DNA from: Parcubacteria group bacterium
Lineage (GTDB): Bacteria > Patescibacteriota > Minisyncoccia > Phycocordibacterales > Phycocordibacteraceae
Direction: 5' to 3'
NCBI GenBank assembly: GCA_028286615.1
Contig: JAQBRG010000003.1
Span: 83,330 to 147,329 of the forward strand
DNA length: 64,000 nucleotides
Shown: positions 9,897 to 46,496 of the stretch, one piece after another
Position numbering within the stretch: the first letter of the stretch is position 1
How the letters are laid out: every line of letters starts with the position of its first letter
Notes under the pieces: generated by a model
The model's database searches: none
What the model was told of the DNA's origin: nothing
What the model saw: the letters and a program-made list of their open reading frames with translations, nothing else
Program-made: the position numbers and the translations under genes

Positions 9897-10054
9897 GGAG
9901 GGACTGGTACGTTATGAATATAGCACTTTACCCAAAGATTGTGTGAACTTGTGTGTTGTTCGATATTTAGTCTCCTGACAAGTTTAAATAAAATGAAAAG
10001 AGCCTCGCGATGTGGAAGTCGGGTGACTCTTTCCACTGCGAAGCTCAGGTAAGA

Positions 10055-10633
10055 CTATTGGCGGGTTGGCGCGTCGAGGAACAAAACGGTATTGAAGGGG
10101 ATGTTAGGGAACTCATCGAGATAAACGTCTGAGCTGGCGCCGCCGACCCTCATTCGATTAACAGTGTAGGTTTCGCCGAAGGTCAGATGGCGTAATGCAT
10201 GCTCTCTGTCGGATTCGCCTCCGTGACGCTCAAGGAGGGCAAAGACCACTCGGTCTCCCTTAGAGGCCTCGAGATTCATTGTTGGTGAACCTCGCACGTA
10301 ATGTTCAAGAAGTGCACGAATCACGTCGTTCTTTTCGTCAAAGCCCAGAAATGGACCGAAGAATTGACGCCACTGATCGATACTTGCTATAACACCGTTG
10401 ATTTCCAGAGTGTCGCTGTGCAGATTGCCAGTCTGCTCGTCGTCGAAATAGACTTCGAGTCTTTGGTCACAGCACCCGCAGCGAACCAAATGGCGCGGCA
10501 GCTGCTTACCTCTCTTGATAGGTCGCCCAGCCCGTGTGGTGACGCGAAGCGGCAACATCATGCTTCCAGGTCCACGATCCTCTATCTTCCTGACTTTGGG
10601 CATTGCTGCCTCCCTTGCTGAAATGTGCAACAA
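10055..10633 (-). CDS. Hypothetical protein in a GC-rich islet (192 aa)
   Basis: ORF with markedly elevated GC (about 55-60%) and GC3-rich codons compared with its neighbours. Confidence 0.45.
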   Translation of the reverse strand: MLHISAREAAMPKVRKIEDRGPGSMMLPLRVTTRAGRPIKRGKQLPRHLVRCGCCDQRLEVYFDDEQTGNLHSDTLEINGVIASIDQWRQFFGPFLGFDEKNDVIRALLEHYVRGSPTMNLEASKGDRVVFALLERHGGESDREHALRHLTFGETYTVNRMRVGGASSDVYLDEFPNIPFNTVLFLDAPTRQ

Positions 10634-10750
10634 CCATATTCAACTTTAGAATATGTGTTGTGTCAAATAGGGCGCCGAGATTTCAACTCGACCAATAAAA
10701 TATGCGCCCCGCCTCATTGGAGACAGGGCGCACAGTATTTCGCCTTGGCG

Positions 10751-11140
10751 TTAGTTGGAGGCCAGGGCGAGCTCCGTCGAGGGCTGCTTGCCGTCGACCC
10801 TGACCATCGTGATGCCGTTGGCGATCAGGATGATGGCGATCGCGATCAGGCCGAGGGTCGGGTTGCCGTCGGGGCTGCTTTCCGCGAAGGTCGCGTGATT
10901 CGCGACGAGCGTGAAAGCGATCGCGGTCTCGCAGACAGCCAGGATGCCGATCATCGGATTGTTCTGGCGCATGGCGACGAACAGCATATGGATAGCGCCG
11001 GCGAAGATCATGAAGGCGAACGCGGTCCGCCAGACATTCTCGAACGACGACATCATCTGCATATCCGCCGACATGACGACTGCGAAGACGCCGACAAATG
11101 CGAACGCGGAACCAGTGAACGAAAAGAACTTGCTAAACAT
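10751..11140 (-). CDS. Small integral membrane protein (about 4 TM helices) in a GC-rich islet
   Basis: Hydrophobic 129-aa ORF, about 62% GC, strongly GC3-biased codons. Confidence 0.5.
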   Translation of the reverse strand: MFSKFFSFTGSAFAFVGVFAVVMSADMQMMSSFENVWRTAFAFMIFAGAIHMLFVAMRQNNPMIGILAVCETAIAFTLVANHATFAESSPDGNPTLGLIAIAIILIANGITMVRVDGKQPSTELALASN

Positions 11141-11248
11141 CTGAAGTCTCCTGTTGAACCTATGGTTAGATTATACATGAATGCGTCATATTGTCAATAC
11201 GTACAGGACTTTAGCCTAACCAACGAGCTTTTAGGCTAGAATGGCAAC

Positions 11249-13684: not shown

Positions 13685-16600
13685 CTACCGCCTTTTTCGT
13701 GGTGTGCTTTTCTTCTTCGGTTCCCCGCCTTCAAGGGAGTAGATTTCGTCTCGTATAAGCGCTGCTGTTTCAAAATCCAGTGCCTCGACCGCTTCTTCCA
13801 TCTGTTTGCGCTTGTCTTTAATAAAGGCAACCGGGTCTTCCTTGTACAACTTCTCGTCTAGAGAGAGAAGCGAGTGGACGGTCTTCTGATGTTCGCTACG
13901 CATGGTTTCAGCAATGTCTCGAATTTCCTTCTTAATTGTTACGGGTGTTATGCCGTGCTTGTCGTTGTACGCCTTTTGTATAGTACGGCGGCGGTTAGTC
14001 TCTCCAATTGCGCGCTCCATTGAACCGGTCATAACATCGGCATAGAGAATAACCTTGCCTAGGATATTTCGGGCAGCGCGTCCGATAGTTTGAATGAGCG
14101 AGGTTTCAGAACGAAGGAACCCTTCCTTGTCAGCATCAAGAATTCCCACGAGTTCAACCTCAGGAAGATCGAGTCCTTCGCGAAGAAGGTTCACACCCAC
14201 AAGTACGTCAAAGTCCCCCTTACGGAACGCGGTGAGAATCTCAATACGTTCTATCGTCTTAATGTCGCTATGCAGGTATTCAGCTTTTATCTTCCTCTCG
14301 CGAAGGAATTCGGAAAGATCCTCTGCCATCTGTTTGGTTAGAGTTGTGGCAAGGGCACGGCCTCCACGCTTAATTACAATCTCAGCTTCGTGGATGAAGT
14401 CTGCCACCTGTCCCTTGTAGTCTCCGCTTTCAACAATTGGCTTAACCTCAAGCTCTGGGTCTATAAGTCCGGTAGGACGAATGATCTGCTCAACAACCTG
14501 TCCGTTGGGAGCAACGCTATGTTCGCGCTCGTAATTGCCTGGAGTAGCGGTGGTGTAGATAGTCTGGCCAATGCGTTTCTCAAACTCATCGAACTTGAGT
14601 GGACGGTTGTCGCGAGCTGATGGCAAACGGAATCCGTGCTCAACAAGCACGTCTTTGCGCGAGCGGTCTCCCGCATACATACCACCAACCTGAGACACCG
14701 TTACGTGCGACTCGTCGATAATAGTAAGGAAGTCAGGGGTGCCGTCCTTCTTGTGCGGGAAGTATGAAAGCAGGGTGTGTGGAGGGTCTCCAGGAGCTCG
14801 TCCATCAAAGTGTCGCGAGTAGTTCTCAATGCCGCTCGTATAGCCAATCTCACGAATAAGCGCGAGATCATGCAGGGTACGGCGTTTGATACGTTCTGCC
14901 TCAAGAAGCTTCTCTTCTCGCTTGAAGTGCGCAAGCTGCTCATCTAGCTCCCTTTTGATATCTTCGATTGCGCGGTTGCGATCGTCTTCGCTCGTAACGA
15001 AGTGTTTGGCTGGGAAAATAAACAGGGAATCTGGTTCTGCGGTCTTGGCGCGTGATACCGGATCCAAGCATTCAATGCGCCCTACCACATCCCCATCAAA
15101 GGTTATGCGGAATATGGAACGTTCGTTCGTTGGCATGAGTTCAACTGCGTTTCCAACTGCACGAAGCTTGCCGGGTTCAAGGTCTGCGTTCGTACGTTCG
15201 AAATAGATACCGACGAGTTTGCGAATAAGAGCTGCACGATTCTCTTCTGTACCCTTAATAACCTTTACGTGTCGCTTCTCGTATTCCTGGGGTGAACCAA
15301 GACCATAGATTGCAGAGACGGAGGCTACGATAATAACGTCGCTGCGTGTGAGGAGAGATTGTGTAGCTGCGTGGCGAAGACGGTCAATCTCAGCATTGAT
15401 CTGTGCCTCCTTTTCTATATAGGTATCAGAGTGAGCGATATATGCTTCCGGCTGGTAGTAGTCATAGTAGGAAACGAAGTAGTGCACTTCGTTCTCGGGA
15501 AAGAATTCACGATACTCTTGGGCTAGCTGAGCTGCCAAAGTCTTGTTATGCGCCATCACCAAAGTTGGCTTTCCGAAGTTGGCTATTACGTTAGCTGCAG
15601 TATATGTATTATGGACAAACATACCACCGCGTCCAGCAAGGAAAGTTTCATTGCCGTCAACGGCGAAGTCGTAGACCTTGCCAGTACCATGTATCTTTTC
15701 AATACTTTGCACAGGTGTCCAGAATAGATTCAGAAGTACTTCCCAGTTATCAACAATTTCTTTAACAGCTGAAATTGACTCATGTGTCTTAAAGAAAGCT
15801 ACAAGCTTCTTTGTCACTGAGTAGGAAGGCTTACGTATACCCGTTTCTAACATAGACATATACGAACGCTCGATACCGCAAGCTGCGGCTACGTCTCTTT
15901 GATGTAGAGACAGTAATGTCCTTAGCTCTTTAATCTGTAAGCCTTGTATAGGTATGAGATCTACGTTTGTATTAGCAGACGGAGGAATTATTTTTTCAAG
16001 TGCTTTTTGTTTACGCGGTAAGAAGAATCCAATTTCCTCCTGAAATCGTTCAAGGCTGTCTTTACCGGAAATACTAATCTTCCATACCTCGTTTCTAAAG
16101 GTTTTTCCGGGAACTTTAACCATTTTTCTCTTTAGGCGTGCAACGATACCAAACCGAAGAAGCGCGTATAACAATTCTGACGCAAGCTTTTTACTTACCG
16201 TAGAAGCAGATACGATATTTTTATCTACCCCGCCATCTGCAGAGAAATAGGCGCTTAGTAGCTGGGCAAGCTGTGCATTCGACAATTCATTCCAGAATGG
16301 TGGAAGCTGCTTGGTTTGGGAATGGCTACCGCACCATTCTGCTAGAACGTCATGCCATAACAGACTATTTATTTGATAGTCGTATGTGCCTGGTCGGTGA
16401 CTGAAGGTCATGCCACGCAGAGTTACCTCTTTGCGCACGTCCTCAACGATTTCCTCATCACCTGACGAAATCGTCAAATATTTTCCAGTAGCGTGTCCTT
16501 CACCTATATAGAAGCCGAGGAGTCGCAAAAATGAAGGAGTTATTACTTGGATGGGTGAGGTTGCAAGTTTTAAAGAACGGCTTCCAAGCATCATTAGATT

Positions 16601-17314
16601 AGGAGCGACTAACTGAACTGATGCTAATGATGCTCGTTCGCCCAATGCAACGCGGTGGCGTTTGTAGTAAGGGAGTGTTGAGAGAAATTCATTACCCCAT
16701 CCACTGATACCGACAGGGGCGGCATAAAAAGAGTGCGCTGATCTTAACAAGACAGGAGTTACATTTACCTCTTTTAATTCTTGTGTAGGTCCATCTATGA
16801 ATCTTGGTACTGGAAGAAAGTCTCCAGCCCTAACATCCTCTGTTTTCAAAAGTATTAGCGTGCCGTCTCGCAAGACGTAAAAGTTATGGTCGCCCGTCGC
16901 AGTCACTTTCCTCCCACAGCTGCTTTCTATATCCCAGAGTTCTTCTGGCGAATGATGTCTGGATACTTGCGTAATTTGCTTCCAGGAGGATTTTCCAGTC
17001 GTAGGGTTTACGCTATACGTTTCTATATCTAAGAACTCAGTCTCGAGTAGCTCAGTATCTCCAAGCAATAAAGCCTCGTCTTGGTAGCGTATAAACAAAT
17101 CGTCAACATAGTCTCCGATAGCCAAGCATTCTGAACGGCTTTTATCACGTACGAGTACTGCTGTATCAGGAGTGACGCTCTTTCCAGAACCCGTAACTCC
17201 GAGCAAGGTCTGGTGCCGCATGCCCTTTTTAAGACCTTCGGTTAGTTTGGCTATGGCAGCCGGCTGGTCGCCGGCAGCGGGAAATGGAATATGGAGCTTA
17301 AATTGACCGTTCAT
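13685..17314 (-). CDS. uvrB: Excinuclease ABC subunit B interrupted by a 524-aa intein. The mature extein is about 685 aa.
   Basis: N-extein ...QTLLGVTGSGK; C-extein TYTAANVIANFGKPTLVMAHNKTLAAQLAQEYREFFPENEVHYFVSYYDYYQPEAY..., and UvrB helicase motifs to the C-terminus. Confidence 0.9.
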   Translation of the reverse strand: MNGQFKLHIPFPAAGDQPAAIAKLTEGLKKGMRHQTLLGVTGSGKSVTPDTAVLVRDKSRSECLAIGDYVDDLFIRYQDEALLLGDTELLETEFLDIETYSVNPTTGKSSWKQITQVSRHHSPEELWDIESSCGRKVTATGDHNFYVLRDGTLILLKTEDVRAGDFLPVPRFIDGPTQELKEVNVTPVLLRSAHSFYAAPVGISGWGNEFLSTLPYYKRHRVALGERASLASVQLVAPNLMMLGSRSLKLATSPIQVITPSFLRLLGFYIGEGHATGKYLTISSGDEEIVEDVRKEVTLRGMTFSHRPGTYDYQINSLLWHDVLAEWCGSHSQTKQLPPFWNELSNAQLAQLLSAYFSADGGVDKNIVSASTVSKKLASELLYALLRFGIVARLKRKMVKVPGKTFRNEVWKISISGKDSLERFQEEIGFFLPRKQKALEKIIPPSANTNVDLIPIQGLQIKELRTLLSLHQRDVAAACGIERSYMSMLETGIRKPSYSVTKKLVAFFKTHESISAVKEIVDNWEVLLNLFWTPVQSIEKIHGTGKVYDFAVDGNETFLAGRGGMFVHNTYTAANVIANFGKPTLVMAHNKTLAAQLAQEYREFFPENEVHYFVSYYDYYQPEAYIAHSDTYIEKEAQINAEIDRLRHAATQSLLTRSDVIIVASVSAIYGLGSPQEYEKRHVKVIKGTEENRAALIRKLVGIYFERTNADLEPGKLRAVGNAVELMPTNERSIFRITFDGDVVGRIECLDPVSRAKTAEPDSLFIFPAKHFVTSEDDRNRAIEDIKRELDEQLAHFKREEKLLEAERIKRRTLHDLALIREIGYTSGIENYSRHFDGRAPGDPPHTLLSYFPHKKDGTPDFLTIIDESHVTVSQVGGMYAGDRSRKDVLVEHGFRLPSARDNRPLKFDEFEKRIGQTIYTTATPGNYEREHSVAPNGQVVEQIIRPTGLIDPELEVKPIVESGDYKGQVADFIHEAEIVIKRGGRALATTLTKQMAEDLSEFLRERKIKAEYLHSDIKTIERIEILTAFRKGDFDVLVGVNLLREGLDLPEVELVGILDADKEGFLRSETSLIQTIGRAARNILGKVILYADVMTGSMERAIGETNRRRTIQKAYNDKHGITPVTIKKEIRDIAETMRSEHQKTVHSLLSLDEKLYKEDPVAFIKDKRKQMEEAVEALDFETAALIRDEIYSLEGGEPKKKSTPRKRR
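15608..17179 (-). mobile_element. Intein (Hint domain, LAGLIDADG homing endonuclease and internal HTH) inserted in the UvrB Walker-A/P-loop (GSGK|T)
   Basis: Intein begins SVTPDTAVLV (block A, Ser1); TATGDHNFYV (block B, TxxH); LLGFYIGEGH and LLSAYFSADGGVD (two LAGLIDADG motifs); HTH-like RDVAAACGIERSYMSMLETGIRKPS; ends ...VYDFAVDGNETFLAGRGGMFVHN followed by extein Thr+1. Confidence 0.8.
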
Positions 17315-18988: not shown

Positions 18989-19121
18989 ACCCTAGCGGGA
19001 AGCCTGTATAAGAGCAAGGAATAAAGCCATGTTTGTTACTTGACAAAGTGTCAAGGTGTGCCTATAATAGTTCTCAGAGGGCACATGTTCTCGACAATTT
19101 TTTCCTAGAGGAGAGATCCAC

Positions 19122-19760
19122 GTGAGTGTTAAATCTTTTGGGGCTCTGGCCCTCGGTATCGTCGCTCTTGCGCTTGGCGCTTGCTCGACGACCCAGTACG
19201 CCGGCTACAGCAGGGATCCCCTGGCTGTGACGGCGATCTTCCAGAACGAAGACTGCGACCAAAGCGGCTGCGAATTCGGCTCCAACAAGAACCCGAAACG
19301 TCTGATCCCTGCTGAGGCCGCCGCCGGCATCACCCACTATGGGATGACGTGCGCCCAGGACACCGCCAAGCAAGTTGCCGGCCCAGTCCAAGCGACCGTC
19401 GACGGTATCGTTCCGAACGCGGCCGCAAGCGGCTTCGGCCTGCGCACCGGCATTCCCTACGTGAAGGGAAATCCTGCAAAATACGGCGCCTATGGGGCCG
19501 TGGTCGGAGCGTTCGGTGGCGCCAACTCTGGCGCCACCACCGGGGCGTTCTCCTCGGCCACCACGCGAGGCAAATGCGTCGACGACAAGTTCGCCGACGC
19601 CGGAGCCAAGGCCTTCCCTGGCACGCACACGGCAACCGTGACGGCCGGCAAGAAGATCGGCGCCAAGCTCGAACTCGACGAGACGCCGGTCCTGGACGCC
19701 TACTACAAGGAAAAAAACAGCACGCCCGATTCGGCCAAGAAGCCGCAAGAAGGCAGCTAA
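19122..19760 (+). CDS. Lipoprotein (signal peptide plus lipobox LGAC), about 63% GC, likely horizontally acquired; GTG start
   Basis: GGAGAG Shine-Dalgarno site then GTG; MSVKSFGALALGIVALALGAC; Gly/Ala-rich; GC far above the local background; strong terminator follows. Confidence 0.6.
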   Translation: MSVKSFGALALGIVALALGACSTTQYAGYSRDPLAVTAIFQNEDCDQSGCEFGSNKNPKRLIPAEAAAGITHYGMTCAQDTAKQVAGPVQATVDGIVPNAAASGFGLRTGIPYVKGNPAKYGAYGAVVGAFGGANSGATTGAFSSATTRGKCVDDKFADAGAKAFPGTHTATVTAGKKIGAKLELDETPVLDAYYKEKNSTPDSAKKPQEGS

Positions 19761-19782
19761 ACACCTACGGGTGCAAAGCGAA

Positions 19783-19823
19783 GACCCGGGTGTCATCACT
19801 GACACTCCGGGCCTTCTTTTTAT
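19783..19823 (+). terminator. Rho-independent terminator
   Basis: CCCGGGTGTCA-TCAC-TGACACTCCGGG followed by CCTTCTTTTTAT. Confidence 0.6.
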
Positions 19824-19829
19824 ACTTCT

Positions 19830-20351
19830 CTACTGAATACCTACGAGTTCAACGTCAAATATAAGCGTTGCGTTGGCGGGAATACCAGCTTCAGGATATC
19901 CATTAGGTCCGTATGCGAGATCGCCAGGGACGATGAGTTGGCGTTTGCCTCCTACTTTCATACCTACGATTCCTGCATCCCATCCCTTAATTACGCGTCC
20001 AACACCAATGGGGAAACTTGCAGCTCCTCCGTGTTTAGCTGACGCATCGAAGACCGTTCCGTCAGGAAGCATGCCTACGTAATTTACGGATACAGTGTCA
20101 CCTGCTTTAACTTCTGCACCAGTACCAACAACTTCATCAGTTATGGTTAGTTCAGTTGGTAGTGGCTGAGAAGGATCGTATTGCATAGCGGTTGAAGTTG
20201 CGTTAGTGCTTGAAGCGGTTATGTCCACCACTCCTGACTCTGCAGGAGTTGGCGAACTAAACGGTGTAAATACTGCTGGCCCAAAGAATAGAAATGCGAC
20301 TGCTATGACTAATGCGATAGCGACTGCGATTCCGGTACCCGTGACATTCAT
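19830..20351 (-). CDS. FKBP-type peptidyl-prolyl cis-trans isomerase with an N-terminal TM anchor
   Basis: C-terminal FKBP fold ...GWDAGIVGMKVGGKRQLIVPGDLAYGPNG...LIFDVELVGIQ. Confidence 0.8.
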   Translation of the reverse strand: MNVTGTGIAVAIALVIAVAFLFFGPAVFTPFSSPTPAESGVVDITASSTNATSTAMQYDPSQPLPTELTITDEVVGTGAEVKAGDTVSVNYVGMLPDGTVFDASAKHGGAASFPIGVGRVIKGWDAGIVGMKVGGKRQLIVPGDLAYGPNGYPEAGIPANATLIFDVELVGIQ

Positions 20352-40150: not shown

Positions 40151-40197
40151 ATTATATTAAATTAATTTGAAACAACAAACACTTCAATTCGGTTCTT

Positions 40198-40222
40198 ATG
40201 GGGCAATGCTGGAATTTTACCA
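40198..40222 (+). repeat. Degenerate copy of the cassette repeat (R1)
   Basis: GGCAATGCTGGAATTTT compared with GACGATGTTGGAACCTTT. Confidence 0.3.
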
Positions 40223-40435
40223 AGGCCACACAAGAGATATCTTTGGTTGCGGAAGCTTGAACAATATCGCCAAAACGACGTAGACAAGACTGACCACAAA
40301 GTACGTAATAATAAACGAGATTATAAGACCTCCGATACGCATATCCGGATACATGCCCTTAATTACCACTTGAGCGAGGAGCGAAAGAGTAATTAAGACA
40401 ACATCAAGAACGATATTTCCTTTCTTGTTTTTCAT
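40217..40435 (-). CDS. Small 2-TM membrane protein (72 aa); cassette gene
   Basis: ORF between repeats R1 and R2, with TATACT about 6 nt upstream of the ATG. Confidence 0.45.
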   Translation of the reverse strand: MKNKKGNIVLDVVLITLSLLAQVVIKGMYPDMRIGGLIISFIITYFVVSLVYVVLAILFKLPQPKISLVWPW

Positions 40436-40453
40436 AGCTTGAGTATAGCTCAG

Positions 40454-40483
40454 TTACTGGCTGCTTGGGACAATGCTGGAACC
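40454..40483 (+). repeat. Cassette repeat R2 (TTACTGGCTGCTTGGGACAATGCTGGAACC)
   Basis: 26/30 identity to the consensus. Confidence 0.7.
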
Positions 40484-40491
40484 TTGTTTGG

Positions 40492-40836
40492 CTAATTCCG
40501 CAGAATTACAAAGACAAGGCACACGAGACCGAATGTTGCTGCCCACACCACTGCCGCGGCTGCCAGATCCTTACTACGTCCAATTGCCTCGTCGTACTCA
40601 GGATGAATCTTGCTAAGTGCTATTTCAATAGATGAATTTTGAAGTTCGGTAACCATTACAAAAAACCAACAGAATACAAGTAACAACAACTCGTCCTTAG
40701 AAATATCGAACAGGAAATAAACAGTTGGCAGGCCGATCGCAGCAAGAAGTATTTCGATACGAACAGCGCTATCGTGATTAACCGCATAATGCAATCCACG
40801 AAACGGGTGCGACAATCGCTTAATCCAGTACTTCAT
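40492..40836 (-). CDS. Diacylglycerol / undecaprenol kinase (DgkA family); cassette gene
   Basis: ...ELQNSSIEIALSKI....DLAAAAVVWA...; 3-TM DAGK_prok pattern. Confidence 0.65.
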   Translation of the reverse strand: MKYWIKRLSHPFRGLHYAVNHDSAVRIEILLAAIGLPTVYFLFDISKDELLLLVFCWFFVMVTELQNSSIEIALSKIHPEYDEAIGRSKDLAAAAVVWAATFGLVCLVFVILRN

Positions 40837-40853
40837 ACTAATCAGTATATCCC

Positions 40854-40883
40854 TAGATGGGAGCCTGAAATGATCTTGGAACC
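40854..40883 (+). repeat. Cassette repeat R3 (diverged)
   Basis: TAGATGGGAGCCTGAAATGATCTTGGAACC. Confidence 0.5.
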
Positions 40884-40890
40884 GTTATAC

Positions 40891-40919
40891 TTGACACTAA
40901 GCTTTAATAGTGTTATCTT
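40891..40919 (+). promoter_or_regulatory. Sigma-70 promoter TTGACA-N17-TATCTT
   Basis: Directly after R3, about 28 nt before the 33-aa ORF's Shine-Dalgarno site. Confidence 0.5.
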
Positions 40920-40946
40920 TCTATTAGGAACAGAAGGGAGACCGGT

Positions 40947-41048
40947 ATGAAAACGCCAACCATCGTGCGCCATCGGAACAATGGTCGTGGCGGCTGGGAA
41001 ACCTGGCACAGCTACGACAACGGCAAGACCTGGACTATGGTGACCTGA
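40947..41048 (+). CDS. 33-aa Trp-rich micro-protein (MKTPTIVRHRNNGRGGWETWHSYDNGKTWTMVT)
   Basis: Own promoter, GAAGGGAG Shine-Dalgarno site, and a perfect 10-bp-stem terminator immediately downstream. Confidence 0.45.
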   Translation: MKTPTIVRHRNNGRGGWETWHSYDNGKTWTMVT

Positions 41049-41068
41049 TATCACCGCTCCAGCCCCCA

Positions 41069-41104
41069 CGCGACCCTCGAGAATTCGAGGGTCGCTTCTT
41101 TATT
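41069..41104 (+). terminator. Rho-independent terminator
   Basis: GCGACCCTCG-AGAATT-CGAGGGTCGC then TTCTTTATT. Confidence 0.65.
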
Positions 41105-41109
41105 ACTAA

Positions 41110-41139
41110 ATGCTGGCAGACAGGGGCAGTATCGGGACT
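41110..41139 (+). repeat. Cassette repeat R3b (partial: TGCTGGCAGACAGGGGCAGTATCGGGAC)
   Basis: 5' half matches the consensus TGCTGGCAGTCTGGG. Confidence 0.4.
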
Positions 41140-41143
41140 TTTA

Positions 41144-41635
41144 TTACCATGGGCACAGGGGTGTTTCAGTGCCCGGAATAACTTCCTGACTCCCCCATAC
41201 GAGAGCGTGGGTCGACCAGAACTCCTTGCTCTGCTCGGATAAGTGGTCCCCTCCTGGAAATGAAGGTGTGTCCCGTCCAACAAATGCCGTATATAAATCA
41301 TACCCGCCCTCAGACTTTCGGAGTGCGATGGTAATCCAGCTTGTGGGGGTTGATTCTTTGCCTTTTACAAAGCGTGAGTAGATGCTGCGACGAGGACGCA
41401 AGGCATAAACAATCTCATCTCCTTCTACGGTCTCCACCAAGTCTGTTGTACCAATTATCTCTCCCAGGTCCTTCTCCACACGTATCCACTCCCCACCACC
41501 CTCAAGTGTGGGAATAATGTGCTCAACAACATCCAGCAGCTTTGGATGGTGTTTAAAATGCGTCATTGAGTGGGAAGTGTCTGTATCCAAATATACGTCC
41601 TCGCCATTTTTTGTCTTACTAATTAGCTTCCTCAT
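41144..41635 (-). CDS. Hypothetical protein (163 aa); cassette gene
   Basis: ORF between R3b and R4. Confidence 0.5.
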   Translation of the reverse strand: MRKLISKTKNGEDVYLDTDTSHSMTHFKHHPKLLDVVEHIIPTLEGGGEWIRVEKDLGEIIGTTDLVETVEGDEIVYALRPRRSIYSRFVKGKESTPTSWITIALRKSEGGYDLYTAFVGRDTPSFPGGDHLSEQSKEFWSTHALVWGSQEVIPGTETPLCPW

Positions 41636-41655
41636 TGGGTGAAGTGTACCAAATA

Positions 41656-41685
41656 TTGCCGGATGGCTGGGACGGTGTTGGAACC
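41656..41685 (+). repeat. Cassette repeat R4
   Basis: TTGCCGGATGGCTGGGACGGTGTTGGAACC. Confidence 0.7.
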
Positions 41686-41688
41686 TTT

Positions 41689-42354
41689 CTACGTATTCTC
41701 CGAGTTTCCAGATAGCGAAGCAAGGAGCACTGGCAATTCGTTTAATGACTGAATGTGATACTCCGCCTTTGTTATGTCTAATGTATTGAAATCAGGATTC
41801 AGAATACTCACCACCCTGATGCCGGCTCTTTGCGCTGCTTCGATACCACGCGGAGCATCCTCGACGACAATAGCTTGACCTGCAGATGCATTCATTCTTT
41901 TGAGAGCCGTTATGTAGCTATCAGGAGATGGCTTCGGCTCTTTATAATCTTCGCGGAAAATAATTGTCTTGAGCAGGTCTCTAATAGGACTATCCTTGTA
42001 TGACAGCTCAAACATTTCCTTCCGTGTATTTGTAACTACACATAAGTCATAGGTCTTTGCGAGTTCTGAAAGAACCTTTGGAGCAGAAGGCTCTGTCATG
42101 TTGCCAAGCTCCGCCTGCTTCCATTTCCTGTCCCGTTCTGCAGTAAACTTTTCTGCAATATTGCTGTCATATCCCTTACTCTTAAGCCAGCCGGATGAAC
42201 CCAAGCCTGTTAGGAACGTATGCTGAATAAAATCCTCACGCGTATATGTAATTCCTAACGATTCGAATACCTCCTGGTTTAATTCAAAGATAAAGCGTTC
42301 GGTATGCACTAACACGCCATCATTATCAAAAAGAATTGTTGTTATCTTGGCCAT
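41689..42354 (-). CDS. HAD-superfamily hydrolase (cassette gene)
   Basis: N-terminal DxD motif ILFDNDGVL; HAD motifs II-IV. Confidence 0.7.
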   Translation of the reverse strand: MAKITTILFDNDGVLVHTERFIFELNQEVFESLGITYTREDFIQHTFLTGLGSSGWLKSKGYDSNIAEKFTAERDRKWKQAELGNMTEPSAPKVLSELAKTYDLCVVTNTRKEMFELSYKDSPIRDLLKTIIFREDYKEPKPSPDSYITALKRMNASAGQAIVVEDAPRGIEAAQRAGIRVVSILNPDFNTLDITKAEYHIQSLNELPVLLASLSGNSENT

Positions 42355-42377
42355 ATAAAAACTATAGCAGCTCTAAG

Positions 42378-42408
42378 TGTGGCTGGCAGTCTGGGACCAT
42401 GTTGGAAC
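42378..42408 (+). repeat. Cassette repeat R5
   Basis: GTGGCTGGCAGTCTGGGACCATGTTGGAACT. Confidence 0.7.
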
Positions 42409-42412
42409 TTAT

Positions 42413-43069
42413 TTAAATATCGAGATAGGTAATATCAGGAATAATCGTCTCAGCTCCTAAATCTTTCGCCTCCTCCTCTGTTAGCTGCCCCGTAAGGACA
42501 ACGATAGGCTGTACCTTTGCCGCTTGAGCCATGAGAACGTCGCCCTTGGCATCACCTACCATAACTGCCTCTTCAGGAAGGATAGTAAGTTCTTTCAGGA
42601 TTTTAAGAAGCAGGTCAGGATATGGCTTTCCACGTGAGGGATCAGGTAGCTCTGAACTTGAAGCTATAGTCGAAAAAATCCCCTCCATGTTAAAGCGCGG
42701 CAATATCTGTTCCCTAAGCAGCGTTCCGTTCATTCCCGTAGCGATGGCAAGTTGATACGTCTCTTTCAATTCTCTCAGCTTCTCGTCTGCGCCAGGGATG
42801 AGTTCTAATGCTGCAGAGAAGGTATTAGTGAAAATACATTGCTCATAGTATTCAGAGATACTATTTAGTAACGGATTCTTATCTCCTACAATGCTCGCGA
42901 TAACATCGCGGTGCGGCCTTCCCCAAAGTTCGCGCACCTTTGTGCGTATCTCATCAGGATCTTTCTCTACTCCCAAATGCTTTATGGCAGCGGTATAACA
43001 TGCGTAGTATCCCTCGGATGAGCCGCGCGTAATACAGTCGTCCCAATCGAGGACTACGAGTTTGATCAT
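42413..43069 (-). CDS. HAD-superfamily hydrolase (second, divergent paralogue; cassette gene)
   Basis: LVVLDWDDCI DxD motif; ...VGDAKGD... motif IV. Confidence 0.7.
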   Translation of the reverse strand: MIKLVVLDWDDCITRGSSEGYYACYTAAIKHLGVEKDPDEIRTKVRELWGRPHRDVIASIVGDKNPLLNSISEYYEQCIFTNTFSAALELIPGADEKLRELKETYQLAIATGMNGTLLREQILPRFNMEGIFSTIASSSELPDPSRGKPYPDLLLKILKELTILPEEAVMVGDAKGDVLMAQAAKVQPIVVLTGQLTEEEAKDLGAETIIPDITYLDI

Positions 43070-43093
43070 GTGCGAAGTATATCAGCCGGAATA

Positions 43094-43123
43094 TTGCTGG
43101 CAGTCTGGGACGATGTTGGAACC
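43094..43123 (+). repeat. Cassette repeat R6 (perfect consensus TTGCTGGCAGTCTGGGACGATGTTGGAACC)
   Basis: Identical to R7. The following roughly 30 nt (..TGCAAC..GGTTCTGTCTAG) are also shared with R7. Confidence 0.8.
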
Positions 43124-43171
43124 TTTCTGCAACGTATGGTAGGTTCTGTCTAGGATAGAAGGAACCTGAAC

Positions 43172-43375
43172 ATGTGCAATGAAGTTGACTGCGTCATCCT
43201 TTGGCACTATTACGACGCCAACCATCAGCTCGTAAACTCGTCCAGCACCCATTTGACGGGTTCGATGGAGAATCTCAACGAACGCATACGGGAGGCTCAT
43301 GGGGAGACTACGGCTAACCAGCTCGCGGGAAAACCGTATTCGGTAGTCGCGCAGATCATTCCAAGTAGAGTTTAA
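43172..43375 (+). CDS. Small hypothetical protein (67 aa); cassette gene
   Basis: Shine-Dalgarno site GAAGGA, followed by a hairpin terminator (GCACCCAGCGG...CCGTTGGGTGC, TTCTGTTTTT). Confidence 0.45.
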   Translation: MCNEVDCVILWHYYDANHQLVNSSSTHLTGSMENLNERIREAHGETTANQLAGKPYSVVAQIIPSRV

Positions 43376-43430
43376 ATTTGGGTATGCACCCAGCGGGAGT
43401 CATTCATCCGTTGGGTGCTTCTGTTTTTCG

Positions 43431-43460
43431 TTGCTGGCAGTCTGGGACGATGTTGGAACC
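43431..43460 (+). repeat. Cassette repeat R7 (perfect consensus)
   Basis: TTGCTGGCAGTCTGGGACGATGTTGGAACC. Confidence 0.8.
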
Positions 43461-43508
43461 TCCCTGCAATTTATGCTAGGTTCTGTCTAGACAACAAAGG
43501 AGGTCATC

Positions 43509-43718
43509 GTGTCCAAGACACCAGCTACCAAGCCCATCAATCCAGCTGAAGTGCGAGCTGCCATCAAGAAACTGGCTGCCCATGGATTTCATGAACGTAT
43601 GCGCCAAGTGACTGGCGATCAAGCACATCGCATCTTGCCGGAAATCTGGCCTGTCATCGAGGAGATCTGTCTCATAGCTGACGCGTGCGAGGCCGAAATC
43701 ATCGAGGTGCAGGGTTAA
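43509..43718 (+). CDS. Small hypothetical protein (69 aa, GTG start); cassette gene
   Basis: AAAGGAGG Shine-Dalgarno site 5 nt upstream of GTG; terminator downstream. Confidence 0.5.
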   Translation: MSKTPATKPINPAEVRAAIKKLAAHGFHERMRQVTGDQAHRILPEIWPVIEEICLIADACEAEIIEVQG

Positions 43719-43752
43719 GGTATCTGACACTCGCCCCAGTTTATAGATTCGC

Positions 43753-43797
43753 GACCGAACAAGGAAAGACCGTTCCTGTGTTCGGTCTTTTCTTTTG
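43753..43797 (+). terminator. Rho-independent terminator
   Basis: GACCGAACA...TGTTCGGTC then TTTTCTTTT. Confidence 0.6.
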
Positions 43798-43827
43798 TTG
43801 CTGGCTGTGTGGGACGATGTTGGAACT
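43798..43827 (+). repeat. Cassette repeat R8
   Basis: TTGCTGGCTGTGTGGGACGATGTTGGAACT. Confidence 0.75.
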
Positions 43828-43834
43828 TTTATAC

Positions 43835-43863
43835 TTGACAATTACTATCAATAGTAGTAAGAT
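43835..43863 (+). promoter_or_regulatory. Sigma-70 promoter TTGACA-N17-TAAGAT
   Basis: Immediately after R8. Confidence 0.5.
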
Positions 43864-43962
43864 GCAGTTAATTCTAGTTCGTATGAGCTAGTCGTTCCGT
43901 TCGCGGGATAAGGAGGTTCGGTTCCTGCCTCATTCAAGGAACCATGTACTTTGGAGGGTCGT

Positions 43963-44271
43963 ATGACCACCATTTCCGCAACTATAACTGGTGGGCCGTC
44001 GAAGTTCGATTTGATGCTCGCGCTGTTTGACCGCAAGTCAATCAACACGCGAGATGTCGAGTTCAAGCTTGGTGGCCCCGGCAAGATTTCGGCGCTCGTC
44101 GTCATTGATGCCGTCGAAGCCCAAAATGCCTCCGGCGACTACTGGAGCTACAAGGGCCATGTGCGGAGAATGCTTCCGCACCAGAAAGATGGTGTTCCTC
44201 CCCCACCTCTAAAGGTTGAGGGCTCGTATCACACCACCGACCGGCAAGGTTCGATGCGAACCGTCGACTGA
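43963..44271 (+). CDS. Hypothetical protein of about 102 aa, GC-rich (cassette gene). The track ORF starts at 43951.
   Basis: GGAGGG then ATG; about 57% GC. The antisense ORFs 43848..44105 and 44102..44347 are judged spurious. Confidence 0.45.
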   Translation: MTTISATITGGPSKFDLMLALFDRKSINTRDVEFKLGGPGKISALVVIDAVEAQNASGDYWSYKGHVRRMLPHQKDGVPPPPLKVEGSYHTTDRQGSMRTVD

Positions 44272-44347
44272 CGAACATGGGCCCGGACGAGATTAACTTC
44301 TCGCTCCGGGCTCTAACTATTTCCCGTTTGCACACTTTTGATAGCAC

Positions 44348-44377
44348 TTGCTGGCAGTCTGGGACGATATTGGAACC
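44348..44377 (+). repeat. Cassette repeat R9
   Basis: TTGCTGGCAGTCTGGGACGATATTGGAACC. Confidence 0.8.
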
Positions 44378-44387
44378 CTGTTTGCAT

Positions 44388-44825
44388 CTAATCTATAAGG
44401 TCTTTGGCCTTAAGGTCATCAAAAATGATTTGATCGACTGGAGAAGTAATATCTTTCTTTGAGTAATCAAACCAATCCATCAGCTCTACTTCGGCACTAG
44501 GTGTCAGATTGCCCGAATACTGTGCTTGATAACATGTCATGCGTACGACTGTTCCTTCAGGCTTTCCATGTGCCTGAGCCTCAAAAATGCCGTAGAGGAC
44601 AATAGTTGACGGGTCGATATCTACGTCCAGCTCCTCTTTCACTTCTCGAATTAGCGCTTGCTCATCAGTTTCTTGACCATCACGCTTTCCGCCTGGTATA
44701 TACCACGTATCTTTGCCCAGACTCTTAGTTTCAAGAACCTTTCTGTCTCGCAGCTCAATAAAGGCTAGCTTGTCGATGTATGTTTTCTCCATGTCTTTAG
44801 ATTCTAACTTAAGTGCTGCGGGCAT
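44388..44825 (-). CDS. NUDIX hydrolase (cassette gene)
   Basis: Nudix box GGKRDGQETDEQALIREVKEELDVD. Confidence 0.75.
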   Translation of the reverse strand: MPAALKLESKDMEKTYIDKLAFIELRDRKVLETKSLGKDTWYIPGGKRDGQETDEQALIREVKEELDVDIDPSTIVLYGIFEAQAHGKPEGTVVRMTCYQAQYSGNLTPSAEVELMDWFDYSKKDITSPVDQIIFDDLKAKDLID

Positions 44826-44842
44826 TGAGCGGGGTTAGAACT
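44802..44842 (+). repeat. Cassette repeat R10, second variant, with terminal inverted repeats TTCTAAC...GTTAGAA
   Basis: ATTCTAACTTAAGTGCTGCGGGCATTGAGCGGGGTTAGAAC. Confidence 0.65.
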
Positions 44843-44860
44843 AACTTACTCTCCGTACAT

Positions 44861-44889
44861 TGACATATTCACTAAAAGTAAGTATCATG
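44861..44889 (+). promoter_or_regulatory. Sigma-70 promoter TTGACA-N17-TATCAT
   Basis: Right after R10, upstream of the 45009 gene. Confidence 0.55.
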
Positions 44890-45008
44890 ATGTCGGCTGT
44901 ATATTGAAACGCTAGTTGCGTTCACCGCAGCAGAAAGGGGCTTATGGCCCTTCCCTGCTGTGGTGAACCCATACCGGGAAGACTGCGGTATATGAGAAGG
45001 AGATTGTC

Positions 45009-45638
45009 ATGGCGGGAACCCCTGTCGACGGCGATCTGTTCTATGCAATAGACGGCAAACTGCACGAGCTTAAGGGGCAGACACGCCTCAAGAGTGGCTA
45101 TCCGTTCAATCCACGTCGATTGAACTGGATGCTCCAGCAGCTCATTGAGGGCAACTTCTGCTCCGAGCTGCTCGACTTCAAAATGGATCTGCTGCTCAAG
45201 GGTGCAGAACGCTTCCACGTCGCTGAACACTTCAAGCAAGCTGCATCGAAGGATGCAGAAGTCCAAATGGAGCAGACGCACATCTGCGACATCGAGACCG
45301 GCATGAGTGTGGACCCTGAGTGGCTTAACTACTTCGAGGAACATGTCCCAGACGTGGCCGCGAAACTCTTCCGGATCAAATCCATGGGTGCTCAGGCCGC
45401 TGTCACGTGGCGGGAACTCGAGGAATGCTACGGCGCAAGGCCGGTCCGGTTCGTTCACATCTACGACTTCCTGAGGCAGAAGATTCCCCTTTCAGGAGGT
45501 TATCTCACCTTCTTCGCAGAGAAGGACGGCAAGATGTGCACGGTTGTCGCCCAAAAGCTTTCTCGGGGGTGGCACATAATGGTCTATCCGGTCTATCTGG
45601 AACTTCTGAGTGAAACGTACATCATCGTAGCCGTCTAG
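45009..45638 (+). CDS. Hypothetical protein (209 aa), GC-rich; cassette gene
   Basis: AAGGAG Shine-Dalgarno site; promoter upstream; structured leader. The antisense ORF 44922..45458 is judged spurious. Confidence 0.55.
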   Translation: MAGTPVDGDLFYAIDGKLHELKGQTRLKSGYPFNPRRLNWMLQQLIEGNFCSELLDFKMDLLLKGAERFHVAEHFKQAASKDAEVQMEQTHICDIETGMSVDPEWLNYFEEHVPDVAAKLFRIKSMGAQAAVTWRELEECYGARPVRFVHIYDFLRQKIPLSGGYLTFFAEKDGKMCTVVAQKLSRGWHIMVYPVYLELLSETYIIVAV

Positions 45639-45754
45639 ACCGCAACTAGCGATCGCCCGCCATGTCCTCGGACCTTTGGCGGGTTTTCGTTTATATAAAA
45701 GTTCTAACTTCAATAATCCTTCGTCACAGAACCTCTTACTTAAGACGTTATTTG

Positions 45755-45784
45755 AGTGCTGCGGGAACTGAACGAGGTTAGAAC
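45755..45784 (+). repeat. Cassette repeat R11 (second variant)
   Basis: AGTGCTGCGGGAACTGAACGAGGTTAGAAC; abuts the stop of the YbaK-like gene. Confidence 0.65.
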
Positions 45785-46341
45785 TATACTGCAGGGTTCG
45801 CCAGCCCTTCTACTACCTCGACATTCGACTGTGTCTTAAGAAAAGCAGTCGGGACAAGCAGTTTAGAAACTTGCTTCCCACCTCCGACAATAATCTTCTC
45901 TTTCTGCATTAACCGACTATCGATAAGCACTTTCCACGATTCTGGAAGGCCTACGGGGGTAATGCTTCCGTATTCCATGCCAGTTTCCTGTATGACCTCT
46001 TCCAAAGGGGCCATGGATACTTTCTTTGCGTTCAGTTTCTCGCAGACAAGACCGTTAAGGTCAGCGCGGTAGCCAACCGGAACAAGCACGGCAGCCATCA
46101 TTCTTTCTTCTCCCCTCTTTCCTTTCACAACTATGCAGTTTGCTCCGTCTTCAAGATTCACGTCATAGTGATCTGAAAGAGCACTTCCATTCATATACTG
46201 AGGGTCGATCTTCCCCACTAGCACCTCAGAATCCTTTACAACCGCATACACAGATTTGCTGACCAGTTCTGCGTGGTCTTTTACTGGCTGAAAATCGAGA
46301 TGTTCTTTCATATAGAAAGTGTACCAAGTTCTAATGTCCAA
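45784..46341 (-). CDS. YbaK/ProX/EbsC-family aminoacyl-tRNA deacylase-like protein
   Basis: 185 aa with a YbaK-like editing-domain pattern (..KGKRG....AAVL..). Confidence 0.55.
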   Translation of the reverse strand: MDIRTWYTFYMKEHLDFQPVKDHAELVSKSVYAVVKDSEVLVGKIDPQYMNGSALSDHYDVNLEDGANCIVVKGKRGEERMMAAVLVPVGYRADLNGLVCEKLNAKKVSMAPLEEVIQETGMEYGSITPVGLPESWKVLIDSRLMQKEKIIVGGGKQVSKLLVPTAFLKTQSNVEVVEGLANPAV

Positions 46342-46388
46342 AACACCTGCGTCAGAAAACCCAATATTTAATACCTTTCCAAGCGAGC

Positions 46389-46457
46389 TGGGAGACTAGG
46401 GATCGAACCTAGATTCACGGCTTCAAAGGCCGCTGTCCTACCATTAGACGATCTCCC
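46389..46457 (-). tRNA. tRNA-Gln (anticodon TTG), compact 69-nt form
   Basis: Reverse strand GGGAGAT...GCGGC-CTTTGAA-GCCGT...CTAGG-TTCGATC-CCTAG-TCTCCC-A. Clear T-arm and anticodon arm; short D-arm. Confidence 0.7.
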
Positions 46458-46496
46458 AATATCTGTATCCTGCCTGAGAATTAGGGCGCGAGCAAG

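Follow-up and report, generated by a model that had tools for sequence, protein, structure and literature searches.

A single-gene cassette array anchored at a tRNA-Gln 3′ end in a Parcubacteria genome, with putative recombination sites that resemble the tRNA end

Integrons and attC-site clusters that have no integron-integrase (CALINs), for which we used published definitions (PMC4889954), are among the described systems closest to the locus reported here. The others are tRNA-targeted islands, including the tycheposons of Prochlorococcus (10.1101/2020.12.28.424599), and small modules exchanged by Xer recombinases, namely integrative mobile elements exploiting Xer (IMEX) at dif and the plasmid-dif (pdif) modules of Acinetobacter. 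The locus lies in a 64-kb stretch (64,000 nucleotides in full, hereafter the window) of contig JAQBRG010000003.1 from a Parcubacteria group bacterium (assembly GCA_028286615.1). It consists of a cassette array of 12 repeats in the same orientation (40187–45784, + strand), ten of a type that we call V1 and two of a second type, V2, with a spacing of 337–1202 bp and one gene per interval. One V2 copy, R10 (44801–44841, +), had been described in the original prediction as bearing attC-like inverted core sites at its ends. We now read the R10 junction, at somewhat better than an even chance, as part of an array of gene cassettes assembled through site-specific recombination at a tRNA-Gln 3′ end. 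The anchoring of the cassette array at tRNA-Gln is stated confidently, and its making by site-specific recombination at a TGCTGG core moderately confidently.

With integrons and CALINs the array shares polar runs of one-gene cassettes whose sites keep the same orientation, a hypervariable accessory cargo (NUDIX, GNAT, HAD and orphan open reading frames, ORFs), a primary site at one end with the newest units apparently beside it, a cassette-borne site just past the ORF and, at V2 junctions, inverted boxes of an R″/L″...L′/R′-like kind with a bulged base. It differs from integrons in that no intI was found here, the primary site is a tRNA-Gln 3′ end rather than an attI adjoining intI, the majority of sites (V1) measure about 30 nt and have neither an inverted half nor a fold, and the junction lies at the end opposite the GTT “core”. 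Moreover, the cassettes here seem to carry their own promoters, whereas integron cassettes are promoterless and are expressed from a common promoter (Pc), and several arrays occur per roughly 1-Mb genome. The likeness to tRNA-targeted islands lies in flexible genes 3′ of a tRNA in a streamlined genome, direct repeats resembling the tRNA 3′ end at the boundaries, and an intact tRNA. Here, in contrast, a unit is one gene of about 0.5 kb that brings no integrase or replication module, and the internal repeats, rather than copying the tRNA end, form a conserved derivative of it with a 5-nt insertion; stand-alone copies of the tRNA end, which we call T-sites, also lie behind ordinary core genes. 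Xer modules resemble the present units in being small, in their conserved sites of roughly 28 nt and possibly in being moved by a housekeeping recombinase whose gene lies elsewhere; these genomes have a single, conserved gene of XerA type, and one array (in locus L010) begins at its stop codon. However, the 11-6-11 dyad architecture that marks dif sites is missing from V1 and T-sites, the arrays lie at tRNA-Gln and gene 3′ ends rather than at a terminus dif site, and pdif modules are bounded by inverted sites whereas the repeats here are direct. We found no description of arrays of this kind in the candidate phyla radiation (CPR)/Patescibacteria in the searchable literature, of which open-access text was covered.

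In the window, the V1 core pattern had 11 matches against 1.28 expected, all of them inside 40–45 kb, and the V2 pattern had two against 0 expected. The minus strand encodes two thirds of the cassette genes, and their stop codons come within a few nucleotides of the repeat's GGAAC end. A tRNA-Gln(UUG) gene (46387–46458, −) sits one cassette past the last repeat, and its 3′-terminal 23 nt (46387–46409, GCTGGGAGACTAGGGATCGAACC in the plus reading) are the T-site that ends the array. A CRISPR-like (clustered regularly interspaced short palindromic repeats) array was ruled out by the 337–1202 bp spacing and the presence of a whole gene in each interval.

The V1 repeat (consensus TTGCTGGCAGTCTGGGACGATGTTGGAAC) was surveyed with a degenerate pattern in an exact scan of one genome per GTDB species, and copies were counted with at most 6 mismatches. 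It was found in 111 genome blocks from 65 assemblies, which are labelled Patescibacteria, Parcubacteria, Paceibacterota or similar, or are unclassified, and in none of the other GTDB species representatives. These blocks hold 318 copies, all within arrays, and delimit 204 cassettes with a median length of 523 bp; the number of arrays reaches six or more in some genomes. One Paceibacterota metagenome-assembled genome (MAG) has at least six V1 arrays: L009, L018, L060, L097, L104 (JALHOO010000001.1), L070, L073 (JALHOO010000003.1). A role as DNA uptake sequence was ruled out, as all copies are confined to arrays.

The anchor recurs with the arrays. The T-site, a 23-mer reading GCTGG[G/C]AGACTAGGGATCGAACC, lies in the + orientation 143–1052 nt past the last V1 in 53 of 56 cases; this distance corresponds to one cassette, and no V1 occurs beyond the T-site. 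Nineteen T-sites are within intact tRNA-Gln genes and 34 are stand-alone fragments, usually located just past the stop codon of a core gene. V1 and the T-site have in common the first 10 nt (TTGCTGGCAG) and the last GAACC, with about 5 nt added between them in V1, in the “T-loop”; the alignment of V1 with the T-fragment scored 13.5 against 3.3 ± 1.4 for shuffles, and none of 5000 shuffles was as good. The V2 arrays of two metagenomic contigs (L112 and L114) end at tRNA-Gln(CUG) instead, and the end of this tRNA (TGCTGCGGGACTAGG...) has its first 9–10 nt in common with the V2 body (TGCTGCGGGCATTG...). At the acceptor-stem end, each type of repeat thus mirrors one tRNA-Gln isoacceptor, V1 that of UUG and V2 that of CUG. 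V1 and V2 are diverged copies of tRNA-Gln 3′ ends in which the first 9–10 nt, on the acceptor-stem side, and GAAC are kept and the “T-loop” is longer by about 5 nt. In L002 (6284–6593), the tRNA-Gln gene is accompanied by two extra copies of the tRNA-Gln 3′ end with anticodon-arm sequence, adjacent to a stretch of N; this may reflect a gap in the assembly or a local duplication where the array is anchored.

Comparison of related genomes that carry different cassettes located the point at which units join. Homology between such genomes starts exactly at tt|GCTGG of the T-site, and the sequences to its left are unrelated. The cleanest case is one cassette (c85) that has a T-site behind it in L034 but a V1 in L063; the two loci are homologous as far as ...cctttTGCTGG, after which one continues as T-type and the other as V1-type. 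It follows that a cassette's right-hand site is part of the next unit and that the crossover falls within the shared TGCTGG core. Furthermore, the tRNA would be destroyed if the crossover were at the GAAC end, yet arrays are flanked by 19 intact tRNA-Gln genes; since the tRNA is intact, the join cannot be at the GAAC/GTT end. The original prediction had placed the crossover at the GTT end by analogy with attC sites; this was not borne out, as cassettes abut at the opposite, TGCTGG end, which is the tRNA-Gln 3′ end. A crossover at TGGAAC, suggested by the boundary of another cassette (c24) in L085, was also considered and was outweighed by the T-site boundaries and c85. These comparisons show that units join at their shared TGCTGG end.

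If units are inserted at the T-site, copies farther away are expected to be older, which matches the decay of V1 along the arrays. The number of V1 mismatches rises with rank from the T-site (rho 0.30, p 0.0017, 22 arrays), and the window copies, moving off from the tRNA, have 1, 2, 0, 0, 2, 5, 9, 8 and 6 mismatches.

The inverted pair noted at R10 is real. R10 reads ATTCTAAC-TTAAG-TGCTGCGGGCATTGAGCGGG-GTTAGAAC on the plus strand, with ATTCTAAC at 44801–44808 and GGTTAGAAC at 44833–44841, and its inner 7-mers TTCTAAC (44802–44808) and GTTAGAA (44834–44840) are exact reverse complements, within 1 nt of where they had been placed. Taken alone, a single TTCTAAC/GTTAGAA pair 25 nt apart could have arisen by chance, and the 64-kb window contains five TTCTAAC and seven GTTAGAA in total. 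The only other V2 copy of the window, R11, carries the pair as well (GTTCTAAC at 45701–45708 and GTTAGAAC at 45777–45784). A metagenome scan with the V2 body (consensus GTGCTGCGGGCATTGAGCGGGGTTAGAAC) yielded five contigs, and in the eight aligned full-length V2 copies, R11 included, the inverse core is invariant (7× GTTCTAAC, 1× GTTCTGAC) at about 57 nt upstream of the nearly invariant 29-nt body. The conservation of the inverted core in further copies, by which the prediction was to be judged, was thus found in 8/8 full-length copies. The full element of about 85 nt reads GTTCTAAC-GTCCAATAC...CCTCTTACCTAAGAG...TTTCA-GTGCTGCGGGCATTGAGCGGG-GTTAGAAC, with a range of 81–87 nt and a variable middle; R11 (45701–45784, +) is a full copy, made up of a left half that we call “ext” (45701–45755) and a body (45756–45784), and R10 is an internally deleted version in which a truncated “ext” (ATTCTAACTTAAG, 44801–44812/13) is joined to the body (44813–44841). 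Because R11 carries the pair, all eight full-length copies keep the core and R10 is a deleted version of the same element, the inverted pairing in R10 is not a matter of chance.

The V2 inverted 8-mers fit RYYYAAC and GTTRRRY at six of seven positions, as originally reported. Single-strand folding, suggested as a check for the bottom strand, gave a divided result. The R″-L″...L′-R′ layout is present in V2, with an R″/R′ box of 8 bp (100% of cells paired), an L″/L′ box of 8 bp plus a bulged C on the left (″) arm (92% of cells paired) and a small central hairpin, and 91% of cells pair in this attC-like scheme against 31–49% when the partners are slid. The single-strand DNA folds themselves are weak, with minimum free energies (MFE) of −4.5 to −14 kcal/mol and z scores of −0.5 to −2.5, and the aligned copies contain 0 compensatory changes among the pairs. 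An attC-like structure of V2 is therefore possible, with only conservation in its support.

The two parts of the V2 element are separable. “Ext”, the 57-nt left half that bears the inverse core, was found ahead of V2 bodies, ahead of the tRNA-Gln(CUG) end (L112, L114) and ahead of a V1/T-like body (L114), and an “ext”-like segment (GTTCTAATGTCCAAAAC..., 46328–46386, +) stands in the window directly against the 3′ end of tRNA-Gln(UUG), in the place of a V2 body, as it does against the tRNA in L112 and L114. Conversely, a V2 body without “ext” occurs downstream of a V1-type cassette in L113. On the simplest reading, “ext” is the other end of V2-type cassettes, and the 85-nt palindrome arises only where a unit abuts a unit or the tRNA; a circular V2-type cassette would form the same palindrome. 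On this reading the crossover would lie between “ext” and the body. As an alternative that follows the integron rule, the whole palindrome would follow the ORF, with the crossover at the far G|TTAGAAC in gene orientation. R10, truncated yet still complementary, suits this alternative better, whereas the shared TGCTG core, the V1 arrays and L113 suit the “ext”/body crossover better.

The main repeats (V1) mostly end in GTTGGAAC(C), which the original prediction had stated of all copies, with exceptions at 44348–44376 (ATTGGAAC) and 40454–40482 (GCTGGAAC). Its observation that they lack a 5′ inverse core was upheld across genomes, where, among 280 copies, the reverse complement of the terminal 7-mer was met within 150 nt on the upstream side in two and on the downstream side in three. 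In the window, about 10 of the 12 repeats have neither an inverse core nor a complementary partner. The conserved V1 block spans about 33 nt, and no conservation at a fixed distance was found within 100 nt on either side. No complementary partner for V1 was detected, as duplex energies with the real flanks equal those with shuffled flanks, nor any hairpin or stable fold (z +0.4 to +1.0), and the repeats had no Rfam matches. In 2.9 million viral contigs, V1 had 0 matches and the T-site one, which is a tRNA-Gln gene. In 187 of 286 cases, the gene to the right of the repeat is encoded on the opposite strand and its stop codon stands 0–8 nt away (mode 4); in the other 99 the gene is reversed and the repeat is not. 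Two further candidates were rejected: a promoter or terminator element, as V1 has no hairpin and its distance to the next start codon varies, and a dif-like site, as the V1 consensus has no dyad symmetry by eye, no complementary partner and no fold of its own.

The content of the arrays turns over. Recurrent array neighbours are the same genes that flank the window array, namely dnaX, dus, an M10 peptidase, seryl-tRNA synthetase (SerRS) and an HI0933-type flavoprotein, and among genomes sharing the dnaX/dus/tRNA-Gln flank the cassette contents are almost wholly unique. Between L011 and L047/L057 the flanks are 92–94% identical, with a 138-nt mini-cassette in one and six cassettes in the other. 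Individual cassettes also recur at different sites: c63 lies beside xer in L010 and in the dnaX array of L102 (84% identity), and c24 occupies two different hotspots of two related genomes, in L004 and L052 (88% identity). Among 150 cassette ORFs, the cargo is accessory and most ORFs have no family; those assigned include NUDIX (8), His_Phos_1 (4) and HAD, methyltransferases, GNAT and S51 peptidase (3 each).

Plus-strand (reversed) genes have promoter-like TTGACA-17-TAnnnT sites, and the other genes have TGn-TAtAcT about 7 nt ahead of the ATG. This suggests that each cassette has its own putative promoter; the per-cassette reading was made partly by eye, and the total of the promoter consensus scan was not above the shuffle expectation. 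Ahead of four minus-strand cassette genes (42355–42379, 43070–43093, 41636–41655 and 46312–46327), a TGn-extended −10 (TATAGT/TATACT/TACACT) lies about 7 nt before the ATG without a Shine-Dalgarno sequence, and such motifs suggest that minus-strand cassette transcripts may be leaderless, from per-cassette promoters. In two cassettes the repeat complement CTGCCA stands at −35 distance from the TGn-extended −10, which is not general. The reversed cassettes (40891–41095, 43135–43420, 43835–44300 and 44860–45700, +) hold small orphan ORFs with codons that are richer in G+C by eye and, unlike their minus-strand neighbours, have TTGACA-17 promoters, strong Shine-Dalgarno sites and intrinsic terminators. 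Two reversed-cassette leaders (43094–43179 and 43431–43516), each of 86 nt, are 80% identical.

Elsewhere, the window organism was met only in two contigs of 2.4–3.5 kb (L123 and L124, SRR13312974), which start or end inside the array, and exact look-up of two window cassette proteins returned only fragments in the same order from one sample. Repeats or population heterogeneity seem to break short-read assembly at the window array.

A recombinase was sought in about 0.92 Mb of array-bearing loci with IntI1, XerD, the gamma-delta resolvase, IS608 TnpA and lambda Int as phmmer queries; for the first two, the targets were all ORFs in six frames from the window and 116 loci. The window contains no tyrosine recombinase, by eye or by phmmer, and no serine recombinase, Y1 transposase or lambda-type integrase was detected by phmmer in the 0.92 Mb. 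The sole tyrosine recombinase, of 302 aa, is encoded in L010, where the stop codon of its gene adjoins the first V1. It is of XerA type: that model gave 243.6 bits (cut-off 220) and the integron-integrase model TIGR02249 gave 126.7 bits (cut-off 265). The protein is very conserved, with many homologues at 78–100% identity. Pfam searches of 143 large ORFs and the 150 cassette ORFs gave no recombinase family among the 25 most frequent families listed. The xer locus (L010 2858–3832; L118–L122) has the order rpsO-xer-(0–3 variable genes)-Exo_endo_phos-CCA-enzyme and is itself a variable spot; V1 follows xer only in L010 and does not do so in five other contexts. In L119, a decayed V1 (3553) and a decayed T-site (3943) stand on either side of a tRNA_bind gene that lies between rpsO and xer. 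This single, conserved recombinase of XerA type is a possible candidate for an enzyme acting in trans.

We put these observations together in a working model in which the role of attI would fall to the 23 terminal nt of tRNA-Gln (46387–46409), the fixed primary site from which the array runs outward. In gene orientation, each unit comprises a putative promoter, an ORF, its stop codon, about 4 nt and a cassette-borne site of about 30 nt. A circular cassette would recombine with the T-site via the shared core, so that the newest cassette would come to lie next to the tRNA and the tRNA would remain intact, and recombination between two cassette sites would excise a unit; the recombinase would act in trans. 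V2-type cassettes would bear the 57-nt segment at their other end, and abutting units would then form the attC-like 85-nt palindrome. Extended to Patescibacteria (class Paceibacteria and relatives), this becomes a tentative proposal, to which we give slightly less than an even chance: a phylum-wide and previously undescribed system would capture single-gene cassettes bearing a mimic of about 30 nt of the tRNA-Gln 3′ end, and an unlinked recombinase, possibly of XerA type or new, would insert and remove these cassettes where tRNA-Gln genes end and where copies of the T-site follow core genes, as an independent analogue of integrons with V1/UUG and V2/CUG site families.

Several observations weigh against recombination at the TGCTGG core. 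The phmmer search, with its five recombinase types, found no recombinase linked to the arrays apart from the XerA-type gene of L010. Neither V1 nor the T-site has the dyad symmetry that a double-stranded core for a tyrosine recombinase should show, and V1 has no hairpin. True tRNA-Gln(UUG) genes read GCTGGGAG where V1 and stand-alone T-sites read GCTGGCAG; the shared core is therefore imperfect in tRNA-anchored arrays. Among 16 homologous cassette pairs, linkage to the left and the right V1 is similar (7.8 versus 8.9 mismatches, background 10.3), and the c24 copy in L085 keeps only TGGAACC of the left repeat, which has no simple fit. The V2 crossover could instead lie at the far G|TTAGAAC end. 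No circular intermediates or insertion/deletion variants within the population were seen for the window organism, which occurs in one sample with the same gene order.

Of the competing explanations, a divergent integron or CALIN, in which attC sites would recombine as folded single strands through an IntI-type integrase encoded elsewhere and with a G|TT crossover, would account for features of the V2 junction: the inverted 8-mers that match the core patterns at six of seven positions, the bulged L-box pair, the variable middle and the length of 81–87 nt are all integron-like. The cassette size and cargo (NUDIX, GNAT, HAD and many orphan ORFs) also resemble those of chromosomal integrons, the layout in gene orientation (ORF, site, next ORF, with a primary site at one end) is integron-like, and CALINs without a nearby intI are common (PMC4889954). 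We nevertheless judge this explanation to be rather unlikely. V1, to which most sites belong, has an inverse core in only 2 of 280 copies and no complementary partner, folding is weak without compensatory changes, the only tyrosine recombinase is of XerA type and scored far below the integron-integrase cut-off (126.7 against 265 bits), the junctions are at the TGCTGG end and not at GTT, and “ext” and body are separable. Most cassettes apparently have their own promoters, which is rare for integron cassettes, and very small genomes are reported to be without integrons (PMC4889954). The integron-like reading of the original prediction is thus partly supported: the one-gene units, the same-orientation repeats, the hypervariable content and the attC-like layout of V2 stand, but no integron integrase was found, V1 has no inverse core, folds are weak, the junction is not at GTT and “ext” and body come apart. 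No dedicated recombinase would be needed if cassettes were swapped by RecA after natural DNA uptake, with the repeats as portable homology and selection for the commonest repeat. The lack of an array-linked recombinase and of dyad symmetry in the repeats would then be expected, the repeat is near-identical across the 65 assemblies, and ComEC (the “Competence” Pfam family) and RecA are encoded in neighbouring loci. However, 30 nt, the length of the repeat, is the lower limit for RecA exchange, and swapping does not explain why polarity is so strict (53 of 56 arrays have the T-site at one end only), why V1 and T-site differ by a conserved 5 nt, why copies decay away from the T-site or why direct repeats prone to deletion persist in arrays of up to 8–12 units; we regard it as unlikely.

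Genes for tRNAs are classic integration sites, and partial tRNA repeats flank the islands integrated there. The arrays might accordingly be eroded remnants of repeated integrations of larger islands, prophages or tycheposon-like elements at tRNA-Gln, with the repeats as leftover att fragments and the cassettes as survivors of deletion, and both the location of arrays at tRNA-Gln 3′ ends and the existence of stand-alone tRNA-Gln 3′ fragments fit such an origin. Against this, the units are uniformly one gene long (median 523 bp), and integrase, phage and replication genes are not present in the arrays; the internal repeats are distinct from the resident tRNA end by the 5-nt insertion and conserved as such across 65 assemblies, and V1 has no match in the 2.9 million viral contigs. 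This origin is thus improbable in our view. A role at the RNA level, in which the repeat would serve as a tRNA-like 3′ tag, processing signal or terminator behind each gene and the array would be a run of genes sharing the tag, draws on the resemblance of the repeat to a tRNA 3′ end, on its complement beginning 0–8 nt past the stop codon in 187 of 286 cases, on T-fragments behind core-gene stop codons as well, and on the absence of an intrinsic terminator from minus-strand cassette genes, in contrast to the reversed ones. It is at odds with a repeat that keeps its orientation in the 99 of 286 cases in which the gene is reversed, that has no stable fold (z +0.4 to +1.0) and no Rfam match, and it leaves unexplained the hypervariable content between conserved flanks and the occurrence of the same cassette in different hotspots; we consider it highly improbable.

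Within the window array, all repeats are on the plus strand. Read towards the tRNA, the array begins with the most distal, strongly decayed V1 copy (40187–40215), whose core TGGGGCAATGCTGGAAT (40199–40215) has 2 mismatches in the 17-nt core pattern, followed by a 72-aa membrane-like ORF without a Pfam family (40217–40435, −). The V1 copy at 40454–40482 (6 mismatches to the consensus) precedes a gene of the prokaryotic diacylglycerol kinase family (40492–40836, −). Decayed V1 copies follow at 40854–40882 (8 mismatches) and 41110–41138 (9 mismatches), the latter next to an ORF of 163 aa without a family (41144–41635, −). Two HAD hydrolase genes come next: one (41689–42354, −) has its stop codon 4 nt past the V1 copy at 41656–41684 (5 mismatches) and a 79%-identical cassette in L001, and the other (42413–43069, −) lies beside the V1 copy at 42380–42408 (2 mismatches). 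The consensus copies at 43094–43122 and 43431–43459 are followed by small reversed ORFs of 67 aa (43172–43375, +), with its own terminator, and 69 aa (43509–43718, +). The V1 copy at 43798–43826 (2 mismatches) is followed by a reversed ORF of 106 aa (43951–44271, +) with the promoter-like site TTGACA-17-TAAGAT, and that at 44348–44376 (1 mismatch) by a NUDIX hydrolase gene (44388–44792, −). Between R10 and R11 lies a reversed ORF of 209 aa without a family (45009–45638, +) with the promoter-like site TTGACA-17-TATCAT. The tRNA-proximal cassette gene encodes a YbaK/aminoacyl-tRNA editing domain (45784–46341, −; likely ATG at 46311), and the last C of R11 overlaps its stop codon.

Elsewhere in the window, the UvrB gene (13685–17314, −; 1209-aa product) is interrupted by an intein with LAGLIDADG homing-endonuclease and HTH domains, for which Pfam gave Intein_splicing, LAGLIDADG_3 and HTH_3 between the UvrB helicase parts. 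The G+C content peaks at 19001–20000 (0.575) and 10001–11000 (0.551), against about 0.48 elsewhere, and these peaks coincide with long ORFs (19074–19805, 10055–10633 and 10625–11239) whose Arg/Gly-rich translations had no Pfam or Rfam match.

Patescibacteria have genomes of about 1 Mb with few recognised mobile elements, and the route by which they gain accessory genes is an open question. The V1/V2 repeat together with the T-site of the tRNA-Gln end is a searchable signature, found in 65 species-level assemblies, and would give direct access to their pool of flexible genes. The repeats seem to interrupt short-read assemblies and may account for accessory genes missing from such MAGs. Given reports that very small genomes lack integrons (PMC4889954), an analogue among the smallest genomes of bacteria would be unexpected; if the proposed system is true, it would be a second, independently evolved solution to the integron problem, based on a tRNA end and without a linked integrase.

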